Source: Candidatus Bathyarchaeota archaeon BA2 (lineage in GTDB: Archaea > Thermoproteota > Bathyarchaeia > Bathyarchaeales > Bathyarchaeaceae). Taken from it: a DNA stretch of 64,000 nucleotides. The notes under the pieces are model-generated. The model saw nothing but the letters and a program-made list of their open reading frames with translations, was not told where the DNA came from and made no database searches. The translations under genes and the position numbers were made by a program. Below, in pieces: positions 15,926-58,209 of this stretch (position 1 is the first letter of the stretch; each line of letters starts with the position of its first letter). The stretch spans positions 5,773 to 69,772 of the forward strand of contig LIHK01000056.1 of assembly GCA_001399795.1 (NCBI GenBank), given 5' to 3'.

Positions 15926-16019
15926 AAAACAATCCATTAACGAACAAACACAAGTCCCCTCTTTTTTCTATACATTATAGCTTTGGAACGAATGCCTTTC
16001 GTACAGCATCTCATACAAC

Positions 16020-17776
16020 TTACTCATTACTCAATTTCTCAACGTTGTCGATTTCCTCAACCTTCTTGTCTGGTCGAAAACGCACAACCTTCGGAACCCT
16101 CGAGGCGTAACCACTCGTATACTCGTCTGTTTCCTGAATCTCCTGGTAAGTCGCCTCCACCACAACCGAAGGCTTAACGAAAACCCCTTCATTATCTTGG
16201 CTGATCCTGGTTTGCTCCACAATGTCCCTAAGCATGTCCATGGTTTCCTCTGGCAGATTCGAAACCCTTCCGATGGTGTAAAGCTTTTTCTTTTCTGGAT
16301 CTCGAACAGCCAGCAAAAAGGAGGAGTATAGTCCAGCTCTCCTTCCCTTCCCGTACAAAGCCTTTATAATGGTGCAGTCGATGGTGTCGCGCTCAGGCTT
16401 CAGTTTCAGCCAGGTGTAGGTTCTCTGCCCAGCCTCGTAGGTTGAGTTAAGATTCTTAACGACTATGCCTTCCAAACCGCTACGCAAGGCTTCCTCGTAA
16501 AACTTCATCAGTTCAACCTCGTTTTCACAGTCCCTCCCTTCCACAACATACTCGGCTGGAACAACCTCTAGGAGGTATTTCCTCCTTTCCGAAAGAGGCA
16601 GATCGGTCAGCTTCCTACCATTCAAGAAAAGAATGTCGAAGGCTCGGATAGTTACCCTAATCTTCTTCTTTCTTCGCTCCAAACCTTCCTTAGGCGGCTT
16701 TCTTGGAACAGTTCTTTCAAGCAAATATTGGAACGGGAGAAATCTTCCGTTTTCATCGATGGCGACAACCTCGTTGTCAACGATGCAACTCTGCGCCTTA
16801 AAAGTGTTGGCAATATCCACGACTTCAGGTAGAGTCTGCGACTTCTCCAATGCCCTCCTTGAAAAAAGCCAAGTTTGGGTGCCCCACCTATGAATCTGCA
16901 ATCGGCTTCCATCCAACTTGAACTCAGCTCGAACAGGATACTCCACCTTGTCGGACTCGTATAAATGGGCGAGTTGGGGCTTAAGAAACTGTCCGGGTCG
17001 CAGTTTTATGGTTGAAAGCGCTAGGTCGCCCTTGGGCACAAGCATTATGCCTTCAGTTATTCCTAGTATGGCGCAAGCGCTTTCAATAAGCTCAGGCGAA
17101 ACGTTATAGGCTCTTGCTGCAGCTCGAATTACAGTTCGTTGGTAGTAGCCCAGTTTCAGGTCGCTCAACAGGAGCCTAACTATATACTTTGCCTCTTCAG
17201 GGGTGCCAACCCTCAACAGGCTGGAGATGTGGAGGTTCCGCTCCATAATCCTGGCCATTTTAGGGAGAAGCCTAATTGCTTCGTAAACTTCCTCCACGGT
17301 TAGTTCTTCTTTCTTCGGTTTTTTAGGAGGAAGGCTACTTCTCCGTGTTCGCCGTAGTCTATGAGTAGTTTTCTCACTTCGCGTATGGACGTTCCTGTGG
17401 CGAGGGATACGGCTCTTTCCACGGTTCCTGGACCCACTTTTAGACTTTCTTCTATGATGTTTCCGAGTGCCAGCCTCGTTTTCATCTCTAAGCCTAGGTC
17501 CTCTCGCTGGAAGAATTTGGCGAGTCCTGTTTCCTTTCCCTTCTTGCTTCTCAAAACGGCTAGGCGTTCATACACCTTTACAACACTTGAGAAGGGGGCG
17601 GGATTTTTCAGCGGTATCCCTGCTATGAATAAACGTATGAGATGGTAGGGGACTCCCCACTTCCATTCAATTTGTTCTGGAGTGAAACCTGATTCTATAA
17701 GGTGTTGTACTGCGGCTTTAGGACTGCCGTACATTTGAACGAGTTCCTCAAAGGTGGGAGGCTTCACTACCGTCAT
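16020..17776 (-). CDS. lig: ATP-dependent DNA ligase, split into two ORFs by a -1 frame change at 17318-17324
   Basis: The upstream ORF (17300-17776) is the ligase N-terminal DNA-binding domain (FSSVVKVYERLA...GEHGEVA). The downstream ORF (16020-17297) carries the adenylation motif EFKLDGSR and the OB domain. Read in the -1 frame, the join gives ...KKPKKEELTVEEVYEAI. Confidence 0.85.
17318..17324 (-). promoter_or_regulatory. A_AAA_AAC heptamer in the ligase 0 frame (candidate -1 slip site or homopolymer indel site)
   Basis: The minus strand reads CTA AAA AAC CGA. The X_XXY_YYZ phasing was verified by counting back from the stop at 17300-17302. Confidence 0.6.
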
Positions 17777-24162: not shown

Positions 24163-24804
24163 TCAGGAGCCCCCTAGAATGTTTTTCTTTTCCTCGTCGT
24201 TTAATTCACGATAACCTTTTTCGTCTATGACTGCTACGTCAAAACTGTCTCCGCTTGCGGCGTCCCTTTTCATAGCGGAGTCAACAGCTCGCACAACCAC
24301 GGATAGAACGTCCTTTACATCAGCATCTTCTTTGTATTTGTCTTCCAGAACCCCGTAGGCTATGGGGGAACCCGACCCAGTGGCAACGCATTTTTCTTCC
24401 GTGAGGCTTCCGAAGGGATCTAAGGAGAAAACATGGGCACCTGTGTCATCGACGCCGCCAACGAGAACCTGCGTTATCAGTGGCGCTAAACGAGCTGAGA
24501 ACAAGAGGTTTGCGACAAGTCTGGCTGCTGATTGTACTGGCATTGGTCGTCCGGAGTTCAGTTTGTAGAGTCGCGCGTTTACTTTAAGAATTTCAACGGT
24601 TCTTTGCGCGTCGGCAACGGTGCCTGAAATGGTCATGGCCAAATGGTCGTCTATTTGGTATATTTTCTTTCCCTTTTTGTGGGCTACAAAGTATCCCATG
24701 GTCACGCGGGTATCTGAAGAAAGGATAACTCCGTCTTTGCAAACTACGCCTATGGTTGTTGTTCCCTTTAAGGCTAATTTATCAATTGGTTCACGCATTT
24801 TCAT
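24163..24804 (-). CDS. psmB: Proteasome subunit beta
   Basis: A short propeptide, then the active-site GTTTIG. Start taken at MKMREP (ATG 24804); the longer track ORF is upstream read-through. Confidence 0.9.
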   Translation of the reverse strand: MKMREPIDKLALKGTTTIGVVCKDGVILSSDTRVTMGYFVAHKKGKKIYQIDDHLAMTISGTVADAQRTVEILKVNARLYKLNSGRPMPVQSAARLVANLLFSARLAPLITQVLVGGVDDTGAHVFSLDPFGSLTEEKCVATGSGSPIAYGVLEDKYKEDADVKDVLSVVVRAVDSAMKRDAASGDSFDVAVIDEKGYRELNDEEKKNILGGS

Positions 24805-27678: not shown

Positions 27679-28059
27679 TTAGCTTGGTCTCTTCAGGTAT
27701 TCAGACACGCTTTTGAGAAAGCGTTCAGCAGCCTCAACAATCCATTCTGCATCTTCTGAGCCAAGAACAGGCCTTAAGGCGTAGTCAGCTGTTTCCCTCA
27801 AACTTTTTGCATCTGAAAATATTATGCCAAGCTCTCTGGGCAGTTTCTTCTCCTTGACGAAATGTAATCCAAACTCTCGGAGGGTTCCTTCATGGGTTTT
27901 TGGAAACGAGTTTTCAGAGGCTAGAGCAGCTTTAGACGCATGGAATATGCAATAGTAGGCTCTAGAAATGGCGTCTTCATATTCCTCAAGGCCCAGTAAT
28001 TTCTTCGCCGCCCCCAGTTTTCTTTGAGCTTTCCTTAAGAGGTCATCAATTTCTGACAA
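27679..28059 (-). CDS. HEPN domain protein (toxin-like partner of the MNT protein)
   Basis: 126 aa. AISRAYYCIFHA and the Rx4-6H-like RETADY region. It overlaps the upstream nucleotidyltransferase gene by 14 nt. Confidence 0.75.
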   Translation of the reverse strand: MSEIDDLLRKAQRKLGAAKKLLGLEEYEDAISRAYYCIFHASKAALASENSFPKTHEGTLREFGLHFVKEKKLPRELGIIFSDAKSLRETADYALRPVLGSEDAEWIVEAAERFLKSVSEYLKRPS

Positions 28060-28543
28060 GACTCAAAACATCTCCATATAACTGAATGCCTTCTTCCTTG
28101 ATTTCCCTAGCAAAATTCAGCTCGTCCTTTATCCACTCAATAAATTCTTCTCGGTTCATGATGATTAGTGTTATGGGCGTGGCTGAAACCAGAGATATGG
28201 GATAGATTATTTTGTGTGATTTCCTTCTGACTCTAGAAGCATCTTCGTGTTCAATCAGAATGAGCAGGTCTATGTCACTTTCAAGTGTGGCATCGCCGCG
28301 AGCTACAGACCCGAACAGCACAACATCAGTGATGACGCTGGCTAGGTTAGATTTCAAAATCTCGGAAGCTATTTCAGCGATAACACGAATAAACCTTTGC
28401 AGGGATATGTAATGTTCGGCAACAAGCCTTCGAACCGCCTCTCTAATGGCTTCGCTTCTGCTTACATAGAAACCCTCTGAGACAAGTCTATCCAGTTCTC
28501 CGACAAGTTTATTGTCAAGTTTCGTTGGGATAGCTAGGTCCAT
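28046..28543 (-). CDS. Minimal nucleotidyltransferase (MNT) with an N-terminal ribbon-helix-helix
   Basis: RHH-like SRSEAIREAVRRLV. Nucleotidyltransferase motif LFGSVARGDATLESDIDLLIL. Confidence 0.75.
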   Translation of the reverse strand: MDLAIPTKLDNKLVGELDRLVSEGFYVSRSEAIREAVRRLVAEHYISLQRFIRVIAEIASEILKSNLASVITDVVLFGSVARGDATLESDIDLLILIEHEDASRVRRKSHKIIYPISLVSATPITLIIMNREEFIEWIKDELNFAREIKEEGIQLYGDVLSLVRN

Positions 28544-39306: not shown

Positions 39307-39988
39307 GCCGCACCCACGGTTTCCAGGAGTTTACTGGGCTTCTTTAGAGGATGGTTCCAGAAGACTAGCCACAGCAAACCTTATTCCAGGGAAGAGTGTT
39401 TACGGTGAGCGACTGGTCAGGTTTAGGGGTGAAGAATACAGGCTTTGGGACCCTTATAGGAGCAAGTTTGCTGCTTCCATTTTGAAGAGTCTGGAAGCTG
39501 TTCCTATCCAACCTAACCATAAAGTTTTGTACTTGGGAGCCGCTTCTGGAACAACGGCGAGTCACGTTTCTGACATTGTCGGGGAGAAGGGTCATGTCTA
39601 TTGCGTAGAATTTGCTGCTCGCGTCATCAGAGAGTTGGTTAACAACGTTTGTGCCTTTCGCTCTAACATGTCGCCTGTATTGGCGGATGCACGTCTGCCG
39701 GAGCGTTACTCGACGCTGGTGGGGAAGGTGGACGACGTTTACTGTGATATAGCTCAGCCTGAGCAGGCTAGGGTTTTGGCGGACAATGCTGATTTGTTTC
39801 TTGTGGATGGTGGTTGGGTTATGTTGGCGGTTAAGGCTCAGAGCATAGATGTTACGAGGGAGCCCTCTGAAATATATGAACAAGAGATAAACATTATGAA
39901 GGTCCGTGGGTTTCGTGTCAGCGAGGTTGTTCACCTGGAACCTTATGATAAGGCGCACGCCATGATTGTGGCAAAGAAAGAAACTTAA
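39290..39988 (+). CDS. flpA: Fibrillarin (rRNA/tRNA 2'-O-methyltransferase)
   Basis: YRLWDPYRSKFAA, VLYLGAASGTTASHVSDIV, and DIAQPEQA. Confidence 0.95.
   Translation: MAVDVKPHPRFPGVYWASLEDGSRRLATANLIPGKSVYGERLVRFRGEEYRLWDPYRSKFAASILKSLEAVPIQPNHKVLYLGAASGTTASHVSDIVGEKGHVYCVEFAARVIRELVNNVCAFRSNMSPVLADARLPERYSTLVGKVDDVYCDIAQPEQARVLADNADLFLVDGGWVMLAVKAQSIDVTREPSEIYEQEINIMKVRGFRVSEVVHLEPYDKAHAMIVAKKET
39806..39983 (+). repeat. Direct repeat copy 1 (fibrillarin 3' end, 178 bp)
   Basis: Identical to 40599-40777 apart from one extra G in copy 2. Checked base by base. Confidence 0.95.
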
Positions 39989-40511: not shown

Positions 40512-40598
40512 AACTATTCAGTGCGTAACGTGATTGTAGAGCTTAGAAAATATAGGATAAGAAGACTCTAAACAGTAGCCTGTTTAATCAATTCTTTT

Positions 40599-40777
40599 AG
40601 ATGGTGGTTGGGTTATGTTGGCGGTTAAGGCTCAGAGCATAGATGTTACGAGGGAGCCCTCTGAAATATATGAACAAGAGATAAACATTATGAAGGTCCG
40701 TGGGTTTCGTGTCAGCGAGGTTGTTCACCTGGAACCTTATGATAAGGCGCACGCCATGATTGTGGCAAAGAAAGAAA
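40599..40777 (+). repeat. Direct repeat copy 2 (displaced fibrillarin 3' end, 179 bp)
   Basis: Same as 39806-39983 with GG changed to GGG at about 40619-40621. The end diverges (..KKENI* versus ..KKET*). Confidence 0.95.
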
Positions 40778-42513: not shown

Positions 42514-42906
42514 ATGACAGTGTACAAGGGAAGGTTAGAAGGGAAATCCGCCAGAATATTGGAGAAAATAAAAGAAGGCCTTGACCGCCTCAACGAAAAA
42601 ATTGACGTGATGATCGAAATTCAGAGGCATAACCGAAAAGAAAGCCAAACCATACCAGACGTACTAGACGTAATGACCCTCCTTTCCCTGCCCGATCACC
42701 TGAGAAAAACAGCCGTGACCCTTTGTAGGCTCGGTCAAGCAACAGCCGATGAAGTCGCCGGACAAACAAAACGGGCAAGGGCTGTTGAAAGCGGCTACCT
42801 CAATCAGCTGGTAATAATGGGGTACTTAAAAAAGGAGAGGAGGGGACGCAAGGCCTACTTTTATGTTGAAAAGGAGGCTGAGGGTAACACATGGGAAAAA
42901 TCATAG
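42514..42906 (+). CDS. Winged-helix protein overlapping the ParA/MinD-like gene
   Basis: C-terminal wHTH-like LCRLGQATADEVAGQTKRARAVESGYLNQLVIMGYLKKERRGRKAYF. It overlaps the next gene by 16 nt. Confidence 0.5.
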   Translation: MTVYKGRLEGKSARILEKIKEGLDRLNEKIDVMIEIQRHNRKESQTIPDVLDVMTLLSLPDHLRKTAVTLCRLGQATADEVAGQTKRARAVESGYLNQLVIMGYLKKERRGRKAYFYVEKEAEGNTWEKS

Positions 42907-43678
42907 CCCTCCACTCATACAAAGGCGGAACAGGAAAAACGCTGCTATCAGTCAATCTAGCAGCAACATACGTTAGAAGAGGAAAAAACATTTGCCTCCT
43001 AGACCTAGATTTTCGCGCCCCAAGTCTCCATGCAGTTTTCAAAACCAACGACGCAGAATATTGGTTAAACGATTACCTAAACGGCGTCTGTGAAATTGAC
43101 AAGGTTTTGACTGATGTTGCTGAAAAGCATGGTAGAAGCGGGAGGTTTTTGGTTGGGCTGGCAAATCCAGCCACTGAAGCTATTAGAGAGATGTCTGCGA
43201 AGGATAGAAAGTGGGAAATGAGGGCTCTGGGTAGGCTCTTATCGCTTAAGACAGCTCTTCTTAACAATATGCATCTTGACAGCGTTATTTTTGACACAAG
43301 TCCTGGGCTTCAATACTCGTCTATAAATGCCATCGTTAGCGCCGACATTATCTTGGTGGTAACAAGCCTTGACATATCTGACATCCAGGAACCCGAAGGA
43401 TGACCCGTGAACTCTACACTCTTTTCGAGAAGAAAACTGGAATTTTGATGAACAAGGTGTCCACCGAGATCCTAGCATCCAAGAAAGAAAAAGAGAAATT
43501 CTATAAACACTTTAACAGCGTACATAAGCTTCCCATCTTAGAGGCTATTCCCTGCTTCTGCGACGTACTCCGGGCAGGAGGAACATACATATTCGCAGAG
43601 GAAAAACCAGAACACCCATTCACTAAGATCCTAGACAAATTAGCCACAAAAATCGAACACTTTTGCGTTTTGAGTTAA
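42891..43678 (+). CDS. MinD/ParA-family ATPase, frameshifted at about 43388
   Basis: Deviant Walker A KGGTGKT. ORF1 ends ...DISDIQEPEG*. The other frame continues GTRRMTRELYTLFEKKTGILMNKV. A single missing base in the GG run at 43388-43389 would join them into about 262 aa. Confidence 0.75.
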
Positions 43679-44016: not shown

Positions 44017-45165
44017 CTATTTCTCTATATATTTTTCCCTAACTTTCTTCGCCGCCTCCACATAATTTCTAAGTCGCCTAAGCTCAATCTTCCTTTCAGG
44101 CAAAGTTTCAGGAGCGTACATTAAAGGCAAAACCGCTAAGAATAGGAAAAAGCTGGCTAACGAAAATGCTGCAGAGACATCGATTAGTTTAGTGTAAGGT
44201 GTGAATAGTATTTCTATGTAGCTTGAAATGAGAAAGGGTAATATGCCTATCAAGTAGTATTTTTCTTTGATTCGGTTTCCAGCTAGTTCTGACCATATAA
44301 CCAGATAGAAAATCAGTGAAAAGATTCCCCACGCAACGCCGTCTAGGATGATATACAAATACCAAGAAAGAATGCTTTGAAAAAGCCCTAACACAGCATA
44401 CCCGATTCCCAGCGTTATGAAGCCGACGATAACTATTCGTTTTCGACCAACTGAATCAGCGAACCAACCGCCCATTAATGCAGCAAAACTGCCAATTCCG
44501 TATTCTGCGATTGGCACAAATGAGGCAAAGTCTTCGCCCAAAAGAAAATTTACTACCGGTCTTTCAAGAAAATTTATCAGGCAGAACATAACCCATGGAA
44601 CGAGATACAGGAGGAAAGATCTGGCAAGCAAAACTGATCTGTAGGAGACGTCAGTCATAGTTTCTTTGTGATAGTCTTGTTTTGATCGGGCAAGAAGAAA
44701 TAAGAACAAGCCAATTCCTCTCCACGCAGCCAGTATTAATGCACCAACCACTAGAGTGGAGAAACTTAAGATCAAATCAATGAAAAGAGTGCAGAGACCC
44801 GATGCAAAAAACGTGATCCCTGCTAACCATCCTCTATTTTCCACGGTACTATGATCTCCGAAATATGCGAGGCAAGAGGGAAAACCCGATCCTAACGAAA
44901 ACCCCAAAAGAAAAGAAACTAGTAAAATATATGTTATATTAAACGTCTTCAACGTAACCATTAATGTAGGGGCTATGCTCCCAACGAACATCCAAACAGC
45001 CAGAAATGCATCGCGACTTGGAAATCTCTTCACCAAAGCCGCGCCTACTATTGCAAAACCAACAGCCGCCGCACAATGAACTCCGAATGCTGCTAACAAA
45101 AAATTGTATCCTATTTGAAATTTTCCTAAAGCACTCTCAAAAAAATGTACAGGGGAAAATACCAT
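44017..45165 (-). CDS. MFS-type transporter
   Basis: 382 aa with about 12 hydrophobic helices and DSVGRKR between TM helices. Confidence 0.7.
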   Translation of the reverse strand: MVFSPVHFFESALGKFQIGYNFLLAAFGVHCAAAVGFAIVGAALVKRFPSRDAFLAVWMFVGSIAPTLMVTLKTFNITYILLVSFLLGFSLGSGFPSCLAYFGDHSTVENRGWLAGITFFASGLCTLFIDLILSFSTLVVGALILAAWRGIGLFLFLLARSKQDYHKETMTDVSYRSVLLARSFLLYLVPWVMFCLINFLERPVVNFLLGEDFASFVPIAEYGIGSFAALMGGWFADSVGRKRIVIVGFITLGIGYAVLGLFQSILSWYLYIILDGVAWGIFSLIFYLVIWSELAGNRIKEKYYLIGILPFLISSYIEILFTPYTKLIDVSAAFSLASFFLFLAVLPLMYAPETLPERKIELRRLRNYVEAAKKVREKYIEK

Positions 45166-45469
45166 GAAAAAGCATTTACAACAACAATAAAGACAGCAAG
45201 AAAGTCTCTCTGCAAGAGAACGGTGCTTATGGCAAGTTTTCTAACCATTCTCTTACAACCCAATTCTCTATACTACATTAGAAAGATAAAATGTTTGCCA
45301 ATGCAGGTCCAGTTTGCGTAAAGACATTGAGAAAAACTGTGTTTGTGTTCAACAAAACTTATAGGTAACTGTAGAACAAAAATACAATTGGTGATGAGCT
45401 ATGGCCGAGAAGAAAGAAAAGAAAGCAAAGCCAATACGCTTGTATGCTGTTTAGGTTTGTCATATAGTA

Positions 45470-46510
45470 TCATAAATCTTCAATTACGCTCTTAATTAGC
45501 ACTTCCATCTGGGAAACTAAGTTTTTGTTGGGTATGCTGGAGATGCTATTGCAAACTTCTTCAGCCAAGCGTTCGACTTCATTTCTAAACATTTCAACAT
45601 TCTCTTCCTCAAAGATGATATCAACTATTCTTTCTGCATCCTTGTCAGAAATTTCTCGTTTTGAAAGATAATCTAGTATGATTTTTTTGGTTTGGGGGTT
45701 CTTGAAAGCGTAAAGGATAGGAAGTGGCAAGCATTCATTCCTAACCCGGTTTTTGAGCTCCTCGGGTTCGAATACATCAATGAAATCTTCTCTTATGCTA
45801 ACCAGAATCCCCAATCCCCTGCCATAATTACCTATTAAATCAACAATATCTTGTTCTCCACCTCCTATAATGGCGCCAATACGCATATGGGCTTCGAAGG
45901 TTGAAGCTTTCATTTTCAGAATCTTGAAGCATTCTTCCGGGGAAATATCTATGTTGCCTTTTAAAGAAGCTTCGAGGGCCTCAGCGTCTCCCAGCTCAAA
46001 AAATCGACTATTAATTATGTTCCAGATAGCATTCATCTTTTCTGTAGAAAATTGTTTCTCTAATTTGTGAAGAAGAATTAGGGCCTTCATCAAAAAAGCG
46101 TCACCTACAAGAAGAGAAATATCTTTGCCAAACCTACCGAAAACAGTGGGCTTCCCATATTTTGTCTTTGACTCATCAATTATGTCATCATGTATATCAA
46201 GCGCGGCAGTTAGCAACAACATGACGACTTGTATCGGAATTGCCTTGTCTACACTACCCCCTGCTGCCTCACAAGCAATTGAAATTAGCCCAGGATGCAC
46301 AACATCGTTCCAATTTTTTACGTAATACATGAAGGCATCATTAATTTCTTTGCATTCCCTTTTTTCTTGCAGAATCTCTTTTTTTGCGATCTCTAGAGAT
46401 TTTTGACTTCTTTCTTCTAGTAACCTTTGAACTTGTTCAATTAACTTCTCTTTGGTTTTCACTTTGGTTTCCCCCAATTTTCTGTGTAACTCTATCCTAA
46501 CTACTAACAT
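45470..46510 (-). CDS. Polyprenyl synthetase family protein
   Basis: First Asp-rich motif DIHDDIIDES. The second motif is degenerate (IREDFID). Confidence 0.7.
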   Translation of the reverse strand: MLVVRIELHRKLGETKVKTKEKLIEQVQRLLEERSQKSLEIAKKEILQEKRECKEINDAFMYYVKNWNDVVHPGLISIACEAAGGSVDKAIPIQVVMLLLTAALDIHDDIIDESKTKYGKPTVFGRFGKDISLLVGDAFLMKALILLHKLEKQFSTEKMNAIWNIINSRFFELGDAEALEASLKGNIDISPEECFKILKMKASTFEAHMRIGAIIGGGEQDIVDLIGNYGRGLGILVSIREDFIDVFEPEELKNRVRNECLPLPILYAFKNPQTKKIILDYLSKREISDKDAERIVDIIFEEENVEMFRNEVERLAEEVCNSISSIPNKNLVSQMEVLIKSVIEDL

Positions 46511-46539
46511 TTATCGTTTAAATCAATTGGGCCTGCGTT

Positions 46540-47387
46540 CACGTCCTCTCTAATAGAAAAAGAAATCAAACGGGCGCGGGATTCTGTTAATAATTGTAAA
46601 GCTAACCTATTTTTCTTAAGATCTTTGACAAAACTACGAGCATTTCGGGCGATTTCCTGCATGAGTTGTTCTACATGCCTAAGTCCTCCAGCTCCATCAG
46701 TAGTCTCCTAAAATTATTCTGGCGTCTCTTTTTGTTATTGTTTTTTTGAAAAGAACAGAAGCCAGTTTAGACCCAGTTTTGGGGGCTCTGTAAAGCATAA
46801 ACCAAGGGTAGGGGCAGGCACTCTCTTTTAATTCTATGCGTAATTCTATGCGCAATCTCTTCAAAGTCAACCATATCCATCCAGTCATCTCTCAATATCA
46901 TGATCATGCCGAGAAGTCTACTCGCCGAAGGGCCTCAATCTCGTCTTTTTGTTCCGCCTCCTTCCTCAACTGCTTTGTGCAGTAGTGTAAAACCTTTGAA
47001 TAGAAGCGCGTCTCCGACGAGCAGCGCTATGCCTTTACTAAACTTGCCTAGAACTGTGAGGCGAGACCCTTTGACCTTTGATCGATCAATGATATCGTCG
47101 TGTATGTCTATGGCTCCGCTAATCAACGTCATAGGGATAGCTATTGGCGTAGTTATGTCAGGGTATCCTCCTACGGCTTCGCAGGCTAAGGAAAGCAGTG
47201 CTGGCCTGGCTAAGTCGTGCCAGTACTCGGTTATGAAGTATTTTAGGGCTTCGCGGGTCTCTTTGCATTCTATTTCTTCCTGTAGAACTTCATTTCTAGC
47301 CATTTCCAGGGCTTTTCTTCCCCTCTCCTCAAGAGTTTTTTGCAACTGCTCCATTAATTCTTCTTGGCTGGGCTGTTTTTGGTTCAT
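46540..47387 (-). pseudogene. Decayed tandem paralogue of the polyprenyl synthetase gene
   Basis: An intact-looking 150-aa N-terminal part (46935-47387, DIHDDIIDRS) ends prematurely. Further downstream, another frame still shows ...LISFSIREDVNA, matching the LVSIREDFID region of the intact copy. Confidence 0.6.
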
Positions 47388-47389
47388 GG

Positions 47390-47752
47390 CTAGACCTCTT
47401 TTATGTCCAGCCTTTGCAGTTGTTCCCTCAAGAAATCATAGTAGGAGTCAACGAGTTGTATTCCCTTTGGAGTGATCTCGTACACTTTCCTCACTCGTCC
47501 TCCCTTAGCCACTTTTCTGCTTCTAACAAAGCCTTTCTTTTCTAGTTGGTTGAGGAGGGGATATAGGGCGCCGTGTCTAAGCTTGATTCCGAAGAGCTTT
47601 TCTGTTTTCTTTATGATTTTGTAGCCCCACATGGGTTCTGTCTGGATGAGCCTGAGGACGAGGATGTCTAGAAAGTTTCTGCTTACCCGTTGAACAATTT
47701 CCTTTCTGAAGTTTTGGGGCAATTTTTCACTTTCCACGCCGGCCATATTCAT
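47390..47752 (-). CDS. PadR-family transcriptional regulator
   Basis: FLDILVLRLIQTEPMWGYKI...HGALYPLLNQLEKKGFV...VRKVYEITPKG. Confidence 0.8.
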   Translation of the reverse strand: MNMAGVESEKLPQNFRKEIVQRVSRNFLDILVLRLIQTEPMWGYKIIKKTEKLFGIKLRHGALYPLLNQLEKKGFVRSRKVAKGGRVRKVYEITPKGIQLVDSYYDFLREQLQRLDIKEV

Positions 47753-50087: not shown

Positions 50088-50113
50088 ACAATTCCATAAC
50101 ATGGTAAAAAGCT

Positions 50114-50750
50114 TTGTCGTCCCGATCAGTCATAACGGTTTCAAAGCTTACAAAATTCTACGGCGACCTCAAAGCGTTGGACTTAACCTCATTCGCAGTG
50201 GAAAAGGGCGGGTCTACGCTATCTAGTCCCAAATGGAGTATGGAAAACCACAACCACAAGAACCATGCTTGGTCTCCTAACCAGACCAAGGGGAAGTCCA
50301 AATAACAGACATCAGCCCAACTAAAGACCCGGTTCAAGCACTTCAAAGCCTAGGATACGCCCCGGAACTGCCGACCCGCAAACCTTTTTCACCGGAGAGC
50401 AGTTGCTAAATTTTATGGATTTTATGGGAAAATGTTTGGGTTGGCTGCGCAGGCTGGGAAGGAGAAGATTAAACAACTCCTTGATCTCGTTGGCTTGAAA
50501 GAGTGGGAAGACAAAAATTGGAAAGTATAGCAAGGGGATGGTTCAGAGACCCTTGGAAGCCACAGCTCACTTCGGAAACCTCTTCACAAACCTTTCAAAA
50601 CAAGGAAAAATAGTCTTTATTTCATCCCGCCTCCTAGAAGTTTAACGAATTTGCACCCATGAGGAATAAACAAAGGCAAAATGTTCTTCGACGGTCAGAT
50701 GACGCAAGTGTTGAAGTTTTCACCAAACAATGGATTATAAAAAGCAGAAC
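50114..50750 (+). pseudogene. ABC transporter ATP-binding protein pseudogene
   Basis: ITVSKLTKFYGDLKALDLTSFAVEKG, then frame changes (..TMLGLLTRPRG.., ..YSKGMVQR.., ..INKGKMFFDGQMTQVLKF). The Walker A region is corrupted. Confidence 0.7.
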
Positions 50751-50891
50751 TGAAAAAAGTAACAAAGAGAATGATTTCCCTTAAAAAGCGAAATGAAAAA
50801 TTATGGTATACAAGGTTTTTCATTCGATACTAGCAAACTTTAATAACAACTTTTGATAAAAATAACGGCATCCTAATGGCGTAATTGTGAG

Positions 50892-57620: not shown

Positions 57621-57848
57621 GTGGTGATTATTGTGAGCGATAAAAGAGCCAGGACGACGCTCATACTGGAGGAGACCGTGATTAAGAAGCTAAAACAAAA
57701 GTCACGAGGGAACATCTCAGAGCTAGCCAATAGAATACTTAAGGAAGCCCTCTTTGGTAAAGGCGAAAGCATGTTTGGCGAATTAAAGGGATTGGTGTCA
57801 ACGAAGGACGTCGTTGAGGAAGAAACTCATGAGGAGTTATATCGTTGA
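57621..57848 (+). CDS. vapB: VapB-like antitoxin
   Basis: 75 aa. An N-terminal beta-strand/helix pattern TTLILEETVIKKLK. It overlaps the PIN gene. Confidence 0.6.
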   Translation: MVIIVSDKRARTTLILEETVIKKLKQKSRGNISELANRILKEALFGKGESMFGELKGLVSTKDVVEEETHEELYR

Positions 57849-58209
57849 CACATACGCTTGGGTATCATACTTTGAGGGAAAGAAAGAATTCAAAGAAGCC
57901 ATAGAAGAAAACGAGCTTTACACCCCTTCAATAGTCCTAGCGGAGTTCAGCAGGATTCTAGTTAGAAAACGCATTCCGCAAGATAAGCGCTCTAAGACTC
58001 TTGGCTTCGTAAGGAAGCGCAGTCTCATCTTAAGCTTAGATGAGACCAACGCTGTTAAAGCTGGGGAAATAGCAGAGAAGGAGGGGCTACATCTAATCGA
58101 TGGCATCATATACTCCTACGTAGATGAAGACGTTTGGCTCCTCACAGGCGATAAGCACTTTATGAACAAACCTTTCGTTAACCTCATTGAAGGAAGCAAT
58201 GCCACATAG
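57829..58209 (+). CDS. vapC: PIN-domain toxin VapC
   Basis: YIVDTYAW (first acidic residue), ...EFSR..., and a C-terminal TGDKHF. Start taken at ATG 57829 (MRSYIVD). Confidence 0.75.
   Translation: MRSYIVDTYAWVSYFEGKKEFKEAIEENELYTPSIVLAEFSRILVRKRIPQDKRSKTLGFVRKRSLILSLDETNAVKAGEIAEKEGLHLIDGIIYSYVDEDVWLLTGDKHFMNKPFVNLIEGSNAT

Follow-up and report, generated by a model that had tools for sequence, protein, structure and literature searches.

The A_AAA_AAC sites of retroviral gag-pro junctions are conserved and depend on a downstream pseudoknot or stem-loop lying 5-9 nt away. In cellular archaeal genes, the closest described system is the fucA1 gene (alpha-L-fucosidase) of Sulfolobus solfataricus, where a -1 frameshift occurs at A-AAA-AAT, at a level of 5% in E. 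coli and of about 10% in S. solfataricus extracts (PMC1616953, PMC8211752). Interrupted genes and pseudogenes at A/T tracts have also been described in archaeal genomes (van Passel 2007, Cobucci-Ponzano 2010, reviewed in PMC8211752). As for the enzyme concerned here, the Lig1-type archaeal ligases, such as those of Thermococcus sp. 1519 (3rr5) and Pyrococcus furiosus (2cfm), are composed of DNA-binding, adenylation and OB domains and carry the KxDG motif; the Bathyarchaeia proteins share these features and add to them a conserved N-terminal extension of about 60 residues.

The idea that Bathyarchaeota have a methane metabolism goes back to two genomes, one of which is that of Candidatus Bathyarchaeota archaeon BA2, from a coal seam; its annotation is therefore widely reused. 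In the 64,000-nucleotide stretch of this genome analysed here (the window), two minus-strand ORFs are the two pieces of one ATP-dependent DNA ligase, with a -1 frame change between them. ORF1 (17300-17776) encodes 158 residues ending in FLLKNRRKKN and is deposited as KPV61665.1, 'hypothetical protein AOA66_1635'. ORF2 (16020-17297), deposited as KPV61664.1, 'DNA ligase', encodes 425 residues from a GTG at 17297 to a stop at 16020. Across the junction, the minus strand reads GCC TTC CTC CTA AAA AAC CGA, then AGA AAG AAG AAC and the stop TAA, then CC and GTG GAG GAA. Translation from the ATG at 17776 must thus stop at the TAA 17302-17300 and yield a 158-residue fragment, and the GTG of ORF2 lies only 2 nt beyond this stop. 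The heptamer A_AAA_AAC (17318-17324) stands in phase in the 0-frame CTA AAA AAC, with X_XXY_YYZ running from 17324 to 17318; its A-run spans 17319-17324, six A in all, and position 17318 is a C. Reading one base back at the heptamer gives LLKKPKKEELTVEEVYEAI, which is identical to the intact relatives. The junction region of the -1 trans-frame product then reads ...GEVAFLLKKPKKEELTVEEVYEAIR, as compared with the ...FLLKNRRKKN end of ORF1. The split at a correctly phased A_AAA_AAC with a -1 shift, as reported in a preliminary description of this DNA, is thus borne out by the letters, by the ORFs and by the match of the -1 reading to relatives.

The fused product has 585 residues, on which Pfam places PF04675 (DNA_ligase_A_N, 61-220), PF01068 (_M, 277-460) and PF04679 (_C, 480-571) in the expected order. 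The solved archaeal ligase 3rr5 aligns colinearly across the junction, over fused residues 61-583 (E = 1.7e-75), and the catalytic lysine motif KxDG, found in EFKLDGSR, has K287, D289 and G290 invariant in the alignment. The fused product is 92-94% identical to the intact 598-residue Bathyarchaeia ligases, with an identical junction peptide. The domain order, the colinear alignment and this identity together place the assignment of both ORFs to a single ligase far beyond chance. This ligase is not encoded as one continuous ORF, since a tblastn search with an intact orthologue falls successively in frames -1, -3 and -1. The domain content of each piece differs from that first proposed. ORF1 had been taken as the DNA-binding domain and the join as the usual linker into the adenylation domain. 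ORF1 consists in fact of the N-terminal helical extension of about 60 residues, conserved in Bathyarchaeia ligases, and of the first 92 or so residues of the DNA-binding domain, covering positions 1-102 of the 174 of the PF04675 profile. The break, at fused residue 152 or so (profile positions ~102-112), falls in the middle of this domain. The linker assignment is wrong, the join being internal to the DNA-binding domain: ORF2 opens with the second half of this domain, followed by the adenylation and OB domains. Such an interruption, together with the loss of the C-terminal tail described below, distinguishes the BA2 copy from the 3rr5 and 2cfm ligases.

Comparison with relatives indicates which base is missing. 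The nearest relatives read CTC CTG AAA AAA CCG, also with six A, where the window reads CT- AAA AAA CCG, so that exactly one base is lacking, at the 17324/17325 boundary, with respect to all relatives examined. The window allele, A6 with its flanking T, is CTAAAAAAC, and the alternative alleles considered were CTGAAAAAAC and CTAAAAAAAC. A CTA AAA AAA (A7) version was observed at only one of 57 aligned loci (L014). Since the nearest relatives also carry A6, what was lost is either the G next to the run or, by way of a CTA-AAA-AAA variant (G>A, then A7>A6), a single A. The one-base loss favoured in the preliminary description therefore stands, whereas its origin in an A7 run does not hold for the nearest relatives. 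None of the relatives examined shows the frameshift: it is absent from 59 metagenome loci (57 ungapped and two, L052 and L037, with an in-frame insertion), from 10 GTDB species representatives (intact ORFs of 597-599 aa) and from the 120 best protein matches listed, all single ORFs, 119 of them 595-606 aa long. These make up the "about 190 relatives" referred to below. A continuous ORF is thus observed in orthologues, with A7 being the exception. Each large contig from the relatives has a single ligase of this type. The event is most probably a genuine and recent deletion, specific to this lineage, that removed one base at the 5' edge of the A6 tract in the BA2 ligase gene. BA2 resembles in this respect the archaeal interrupted genes, with a lineage-specific frameshift at a slippery-looking A tract and several other disrupted genes in the genome; it differs from them in that the gene is a single-copy Lig1-type ligase rather than an accessory gene, and in that the tract has the same length as in relatives, the flanking base being the one missing.

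The site adjoins a homopolymer, an A7 variant exists in the clade and the gene is presumably essential, with normal purifying selection. A read error, PCR slippage or the choice of a strain variant by the assembler could thus have hidden an in-frame allele (CTG AAAAAA or A7) encoding an intact ligase. Both ligase lesions are found in three different assemblies, namely in the 154.5-kb contig of BA2, in the UBA re-assembly (twin assembly GCA_002509245.1; contig DAEP01000104.1, 100% identical) and in a contig assembled from SRR2132206 with MEGAHIT, and this agreement speaks against an artefact, although the three probably share one read set. The BA2 BioProject (PRJNA291107) was used in a study requiring Illumina data (PMC10936416), for which A6/A7 consensus errors are rare, and 18 A7/T7 runs are resolved in the window. 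No intact allele of more than 94% identity appeared among the matches listed from a search of 5.8 billion protein clusters. The same gene also carries a 7-bp duplication, which is not an error type. Two analogous lesions of the contig, in a MinD-like and in an MFS gene, could be cross-checked and are 100% identical in the Logan assembly of a different run, SRR5036703. This comparison covers the MinD/MFS region only: exact searches for ORF1, for ORF2 and for the KaiC-like gene next to them yielded only NCBI/ENA contigs of the same project and nothing from Logan SRR5036703. No disagreement was observed between assemblies or runs, and the literature held nothing specific on the run accessions or on a BA2 frameshift. 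An artefact or misleading consensus looks quite unlikely on balance, and the "undercall" proposed earlier is likewise improbable, given the concordance of the assemblies and the recurrence of comparable lesions in another run.

The other breaks of the contig are of various kinds. The MinD-like gene has lost one G of GGG and is split with an ATGA stop-start overlap, at a place devoid of any slippery site. The MFS gene lacks a base adjoining a T7 run, with an in-phase T_TTT_TTG at the site. An ABC ATPase has accumulated at least 10 indels and a 69-nt deletion, and a polyprenyl-synthase paralog is broken. The surroundings look otherwise sound. Of ten orthologues compared in the neighbourhood, nine stay collinear and in a single frame over practically their whole length, and the tenth does so over residues 1-193 of 222. 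When 30 ORFs were swept with Pfam, about 23 further genes gave matches, with profiles mostly spanned in full and none looking split. In a window-wide screen of every homopolymer of at least 5 nt for its potential to fuse ORFs, a screen blind to the breaks of the MinD-like and MFS genes (these came to light through homology), only the ligase site survived; its matches at 24170 and 42896 were discarded as ordinary gene boundaries. General assembly sloppiness was rejected on these three grounds. The frame breaks of the contig appear to be real mutations rather than assembly noise, and inferences about the gene content of BA2 should consequently allow for pseudogenes.

A second frame-disrupting lesion of the ligase gene (16020-16033, minus strand) lies outside the coordinates given in the preliminary description, where it went unnoticed. 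It is a perfect 7-bp tandem duplication, TGAGTAA-TGAGTAA, a mutation of the replication-slippage type, unique to this genotype, about 70 relatives being ungapped at this place. It creates a premature TAA stop (16022-16020), so that ...SNE* replaces the conserved C-terminal tail, which in relatives consists of the final 15 residues. An out-of-frame remnant of this tail, KLYEMLYERHSFQSYNV*, persists downstream (15968-16021, minus strand; tblastn match in frame -1 at 16021-15980). The gene thus combines two lesions absent from relatives, the 1-nt deletion at 17324/17325 and the 7-bp duplication, as would a pseudogene. The orphaned tail shows an excess of non-synonymous change (Nd 5, Sd 2, omega 0.50, versus about 0.1 elsewhere in the gene), and a Gln shared by all the relatives' tails displayed has been lost from it. 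A possible additional indication of weakened constraint is present in a C-terminal OB-domain motif, where a TCG Ser codon (16101-16103, minus strand) stands at fused residue 559 in place of the Leu of the aligned relatives (YALRVPK to YASRVPK).

Upstream of this tail, selection has left a different picture. Along the terminal branch, dN/dS amounts to 0.134 in the ORF1 part and 0.097 in the ORF2 part, versus 0.03-0.31 in intact relatives. Only the orphaned tail is raised, and neither half approaches 1. A long-standing pseudogene was therefore rejected, pairwise and terminal-branch dN/dS both being free of relaxation outside the tail. Both halves being within the range of intact relatives, the deletion is probably recent; if disabling, it is estimated to be confined to about the final 15% of the branch. 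Of note, unrelaxed selection on the halves would be equally expected if the gene were fully expressed or the deletion unreal, and an in-frame allele could coexist in the population; both points count against the deletion.

Purifying selection on both halves would also suit a functional -1 frameshift, in which tandem slippage of tRNA-Lys and tRNA-Asn on A_AAA_AAC would deliver a full-length ligase besides the 158-residue product, either as an evolved device or as a selected leaky rescue. The BA2 gene shares several features with fucA1. In both cases, a cellular archaeal gene lies in two ORFs related by a -1 shift at an in-phase Lys-Asn A_AAA_AAY, full-length homologues without the shift exist elsewhere, and the sequence of these homologues is recovered in the shifted product (PMC1616953, PMC8211752). 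The correctly phased BA2 heptamer is nearly identical to the A-AAA-AAT of fucA1, the only proven cellular archaeal -1 site, which is likewise not conserved in full-length homologues (PMC1616953, PMC8211752), and the second BA2 frameshift, in the MFS gene, also sits on an in-phase slippery heptamer. However, fucA1 has flanking rare codons, a putative stem-loop and experimentally demonstrated frameshifting. The BA2 gene encodes an essential-type replication enzyme and carries a second lesion, shows no predicted structure and offers an overlap of only about 16 nt between the 3' end of the heptamer and the ORF1 stop.

The heptamer followed by an ORF in the -1 frame has the form of a programmed site, and its phasing, singled out for a check in the preliminary description, is correct. 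It is not statistically special, however: 66 in-phase X_XXY_YYZ heptamers occur in 44 long ORFs (14,459 codons), four of them being A_AAA_AAC, and the phasing came automatically, because the tract consisted of two in-frame Lys codons (ancestral AAA AAA). A downstream stem-loop, which the preliminary description proposed to look for, could not be recognized, the 98 and 58 nt after the heptamer folding no better than shuffles (MFE z = -0.57 and -0.34, respectively). In the predicted fold, the first 20 nt 3' of the heptamer are unpaired and pairing begins 21 nt after it. The retroviral gag-pro heptamer is identical to that of BA2, but conservation and downstream structure are found at the viral sites only. 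The configuration recurs in none of the about 190 relatives (the proteins being the matches listed), no shift to frame -1 being found in the relatives' DNA examined, and conserved recoding was rejected on this basis. The GGAG present upstream shows no conservation at the nucleotide level, and the third BA2 frameshift, in the MinD-like gene, involves no slippery site. The sequence evidence thus does not support a programmed -1 frameshift at the BA2 ligase site, contrary to the first of the two readings initially put forward, and functional frameshifting in either form seems unlikely. Rather than an evolved recoding signal, the locus most likely represents an ordinary frameshift mutation, in a genome where several genes are decaying.

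The most likely course of events is as follows. From an ancestral CTG AAA AAA, either the G was lost, or CTA AAA AAA arose first and then lost one A by slippage, in a gene that had already been deprived of its C-terminal tail by the 7-bp tandem duplication. Full-length 585-residue ligase, if any, would then come only from unprogrammed -1 slippage on A_AAA_AAC, perhaps at a level of a few percent by analogy with the A-AAA-AAT of Sulfolobus fucA1. ORF2 might also be produced by termination-reinitiation at the GTG located 2 nt past the ORF1 stop, giving a complete catalytic core with half a DNA-binding domain. Incidental slippage and a two-piece ligase are both possible. In the latter, ORF1 and ORF2 would be translated separately, and ligase activity would be kept without any recoding, either through non-covalent reassembly of the two halves of the DNA-binding domain or because ORF2 is sufficient by itself. 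The stop/start spacing (TAA CC GTG) and the presence of all catalytic motifs in ORF2 are consistent with this, as are the purifying selection on both halves and the ATGA stop-start overlap of the split MinD-like gene. The break also falls in a variable, indel-tolerant stretch between helices, which corresponds to a gap in the 3rr5 alignment and to the in-frame insertion of two metagenome loci, and residues 152-160 are non-helical in an AlphaFold2 model of the fused protein. This model, of low confidence (mean pLDDT 41), is nevertheless too poor to support reassembly, no Shine-Dalgarno-like sequence precedes the GTG, and no split ligase of the BA2 kind occurs among the protein matches listed for relatives. 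A functional two-piece enzyme is very unlikely.

The BA2 ligase is presumably the replicative one, so that the fixation of a disabling mutation in an abundant population is unexpected, which counts against the preferred reading of a genuine deletion. There is only a slim chance that BA2 has no other replicative ligase and survives through -1 slippage on A_AAA_AAC frequent enough to supply the full-length enzyme. Should this be true, BA2 would provide a second case, besides fucA1, of a -1 frameshift in a cellular archaeal gene, and the first to concern a core replication gene; the T_TTT_TTG of the MFS gene would then suggest that frameshifts are tolerated in this lineage preferentially at places where slippage can rescue them. 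For biology, the interest is modest, unless a fixed frameshift should prove to lie in the only replicative ligase; DNA replication would then have to be sustained by leaky -1 slippage or by a split enzyme, and the gene would lend itself naturally to testing unprogrammed frameshifting in archaea. A more immediate value concerns annotation and the judging of MAG quality, the ligase having been deposited as a 'hypothetical protein' and a truncated 'DNA ligase'.

The ATP-dependent DNA ligase gene of Candidatus Bathyarchaeota archaeon BA2 lies on the minus strand as two pieces, ORF1 (17776-17300, 158 aa, C-terminal end ...FLLKNRRKKN*) and ORF2 (425 aa, from a GTG at 17297, 2 nt 3' of the ORF1 stop, to a stop at 16020). 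They match exactly the BA2 entries KPV61665.1 ('hypothetical protein AOA66_1635') and KPV61664.1 ('DNA ligase'). The junction reads GCC TTC CTC CTA AAA AAC CGA AGA AAG AAG AAC TAA CC GTG on the minus strand, in which positions 17319-17324 are an A6 run and 17318 is C. Re-reading of this sequence and of the ORF frames bore out the coordinates of the preliminary description, as well as its heptamer A_AAA_AAC (17324-17318), which has the X_XXY_YYZ phase of classic -1 slippery sites in the ORF1 frame. Stepping back one base there gives ...LLKKPKKEELTVEEVYEAI. The fused product (585 aa) contains the Pfam domains DNA_ligase_A_N (61-220), DNA_ligase_A_M (277-460) and DNA_ligase_A_C (480-571), and aligns without a break to the solved archaeal ligases 3rr5, 4eq5 and 2cfm (E ~1e-75). 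Judged by domain content and alignment, ORF1 and ORF2 are a single ligase gene, interrupted within its DNA-binding domain. The preliminary description had put the break at the end of this domain, with the linker into the adenylation domain following. This is incorrect, because ORF1 alone covers profile positions 1-102 of the 174 of DNA_ligase_A_N, with positions 112-173 at the beginning of ORF2, and because, in the alignment to solved ligases, the Thermococcus DNA-binding domain has a short insertion opposite the junction. The break stretch tolerates indels, with an in-frame insertion at two relatives' loci (L052 and L037), and a low-confidence AlphaFold2 model (pLDDT 41) places it in a non-helical segment between two helices. 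At the other end of ORF1, residues 1-60 (17597-17776, minus strand) form an extension of about 60 aa kept in Bathyarchaeia ligases, MTVVKPPTFEELVQ.YGSPKAAVQHLIESGFTPEQIEWKWGVPYHLIRLF, which matches nothing in Pfam and lacks an equivalent in the solved archaeal ligases; its predicted structure, four short helices, is the top-scoring portion of an otherwise poor model.

The best 120 protein matches, all Bathyarchaeia sequences with 73-94% identity, are without exception single ORFs, 119 of them of 595-606 aa and nearly all of 598 aa. The junction peptide VAFLLKKPKKEELTVEEVYEAI is identical in the aligned protein matches, and no intact allele in the protein collection searched exceeds 94% identity. 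In DNA, 57 metagenome loci are ungapped across the site and two more have an in-frame insertion only; the ten GTDB species representatives all have intact ORFs (597-599 aa). The preliminary description had suspected the loss of a base from an A7 run. The reading is indeed continuous in orthologues, but the nearest relatives (88-91% nucleotide identity) have CTC CTG AAA AAA CCG, also an A6 run, preceded by G, and CTA AAA AAA was seen at one locus (L014). The window has CTC CT- AAA AAA CCG, and the lost base is therefore either the G that ended the Leu codon or an A from an A7 run; by the latter route, a synonymous CTG>CTA change would have created the run before one A was lost. The comparison points firmly to a lineage-specific one-base deletion, which forces termination at 17302-17300.

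Whichever base was lost, the in-phase heptamer follows from the origin of the tract as two Lys codons in frame, and its phasing does not independently argue for recoding. Nor are in-phase X_XXY_YYZ heptamers rare in the window: 44 long ORFs (14,459 codons) contain 66, including four A_AAA_AAC. Programmed -1 frameshifting, the other reading first proposed, is not supported, as the site lacks two of its defining features, conservation and a stimulator. The suggested downstream stem-loop did not emerge, since the 58 and 98 nt 3' of the heptamer fold no better than shuffled sequences (z = -0.34 and -0.57); unpaired purines make up the 20 nt next to it. A GGAG about 15 nt upstream of the heptamer is a Gly-Glu codon pair, with GGT, GGC and GGA variants among relatives. 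The BA2 site has no conserved or structured recoding apparatus.

The window ligase also terminates early, at VEKLSNE*, where relatives run on with ...KLHKLYEMQYERHPFQSL. Its seven extra bases in the DNA alignment are a perfect tandem duplication, TGAGTAA-TGAGTAA (16020-16033), at a position ungapped in about 70 relatives. What remains of the tail (16021-15968), now orphaned, can still be made out in another frame. On the terminal branch it shows five non-synonymous and two synonymous changes (omega 0.50), one of which alters a Gln invariant in every displayed relative tail. Since the tail has accumulated such changes, the duplication is real and older; the C-terminal truncation pre-existed the one-base deletion. 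The repaired ligase gives a pairwise dN/dS of 0.07-0.11 against relatives, no different from that of the intact relatives among themselves. Along the window terminal branch (pS ~0.14), the ORF1 part (Nd 7, Sd 16) has an omega of 0.134 and the ORF2 part one of 0.097, and neither value leaves the range seen in intact relatives. A deletion that abolished function would, by estimate, date from roughly the last 15% of this branch; otherwise the gene would still be expressed. Separately, at 16101-16103 (minus strand), all aligned relatives have Leu where the window has Ser (YALRVPK to YASRVPK), in a motif of the C-terminal OB domain.

Two other assemblies show the same split and both lesions: the UBA re-assembly GCA_002509245.1, with 100% identity across 6.5 kb, and a MEGAHIT assembly of SRR2132206 (PRJNA291107), with two SNPs, none in the ligase. 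The coal-seam data of PRJNA291107 were used in a study requiring Illumina data (PMC10936416). The UBA contigs DAEP01000104.1 and DAEP01000008.1 map within the 154,546-bp BA2 contig of which the window is part; a short stretch near 43572-43631 is not of the same length in DAEP01000008.1 and in the window. A generally unreliable contig is ruled out by its other genes. Compared with a relative's 2.2-Mb contig, nine neighbouring orthologues, including a 948-aa helicase, are collinear, in one frame and about full length, and a tenth is collinear over residues 1-193 of 222; among these neighbours only the ligase splits (frames -1, -3, -1). About 23 of 30 further ORFs had Pfam matches, most over the full profile, and none looked split.

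The contig nevertheless holds real gene decay. A MinD/ParA-family ATPase gene (42891-43678, plus strand) is split into ORFs of 170 and 92 aa whose stop and start overlap in ATGA; relative to 258-aa single-ORF homologues (90% identity), it lacks one G of a GGG (~43387-43389). GenBank names its N-terminal piece 'cryptic autophosphorylating protein tyrosine kinase Etk'. In an MFS transporter gene (44017-45248, minus strand), the first ~45 codons are in another frame than the remainder (break ~45114-45148). Compared with the relative L094, this gene has lost the base after a T7 run (~45140-45148), and an in-phase T_TTT_TTG remains; this break shares with that of the ligase the loss of a flanking base with run length kept. 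The UBA, ENA and Logan assemblies all carry the MinD/ParA lesion in identical form, and the MinD/ParA and MFS lesions both recur with 100% identity in the Logan assembly of a different run, SRR5036703, so they belong to the DNA of the organism itself. By induction the same probably holds for the ligase deletion, although its locus, unlike the MinD/MFS region, was not found in that run. An ABC-transporter ATPase remnant (~50108-50800, plus strand) is an old, clearly decayed pseudogene: compared with the L094 orthologue, it carries at least 10 small indels plus a deletion of 69 nt, and no partner permease gene is present. A second, fragmented polyprenyl-synthetase copy (46460-47390, minus strand), lying between the intact copy (45470-46510) and a PadR regulator, is 52% identical to the N-terminus of that neighbour and absent at the matching position in the relative's genome.

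The ligase deletion is probably a real, recent mutation of the kind that A/T tracts of archaeal genomes accumulate (review: PMC8211752), and is best filed as a further archaeal interrupted gene at an A tract; its sole notable point is that the gene encodes the Lig1-type ligase of a much-cited MAG. Two rescue routes are possibilities, not findings. Residual ligase might arise from unprogrammed -1 slippage on A_AAA_AAC, by analogy with the near-identical A-AAA-AAT of the Sulfolobus solfataricus alpha-L-fucosidase gene fucA1, which gives 5-10% frameshifting (PMC1616953); the BA2 site resembles this type of archaeal -1 site in appearance and would act in the same way. Alternatively, reinitiation at the GTG 2 nt past the stop could yield the catalytic core with half of the DNA-binding domain. 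That BA2 replication depends on leaky slippage at the heptamer seems to us quite improbable.

Elsewhere in the window, a 186-bp direct repeat (99% identical; 39798-39983 and 40592-40777, plus strand) duplicates the 3' end of the fibrillarin gene. Its copies bracket a cassette of about 600 bp with a 68-aa ORF and a ParE-family toxin, which looks like an insertion bringing its own copy of the target gene's end. Two toxin-antitoxin-like pairs were also seen, one combining HEPN and a nucleotidyltransferase with a ribbon-helix-helix N-terminus (27682-28543, minus strand), the other a PIN-domain protein preceded by a 75-aa ORF (57621-58206, plus strand).
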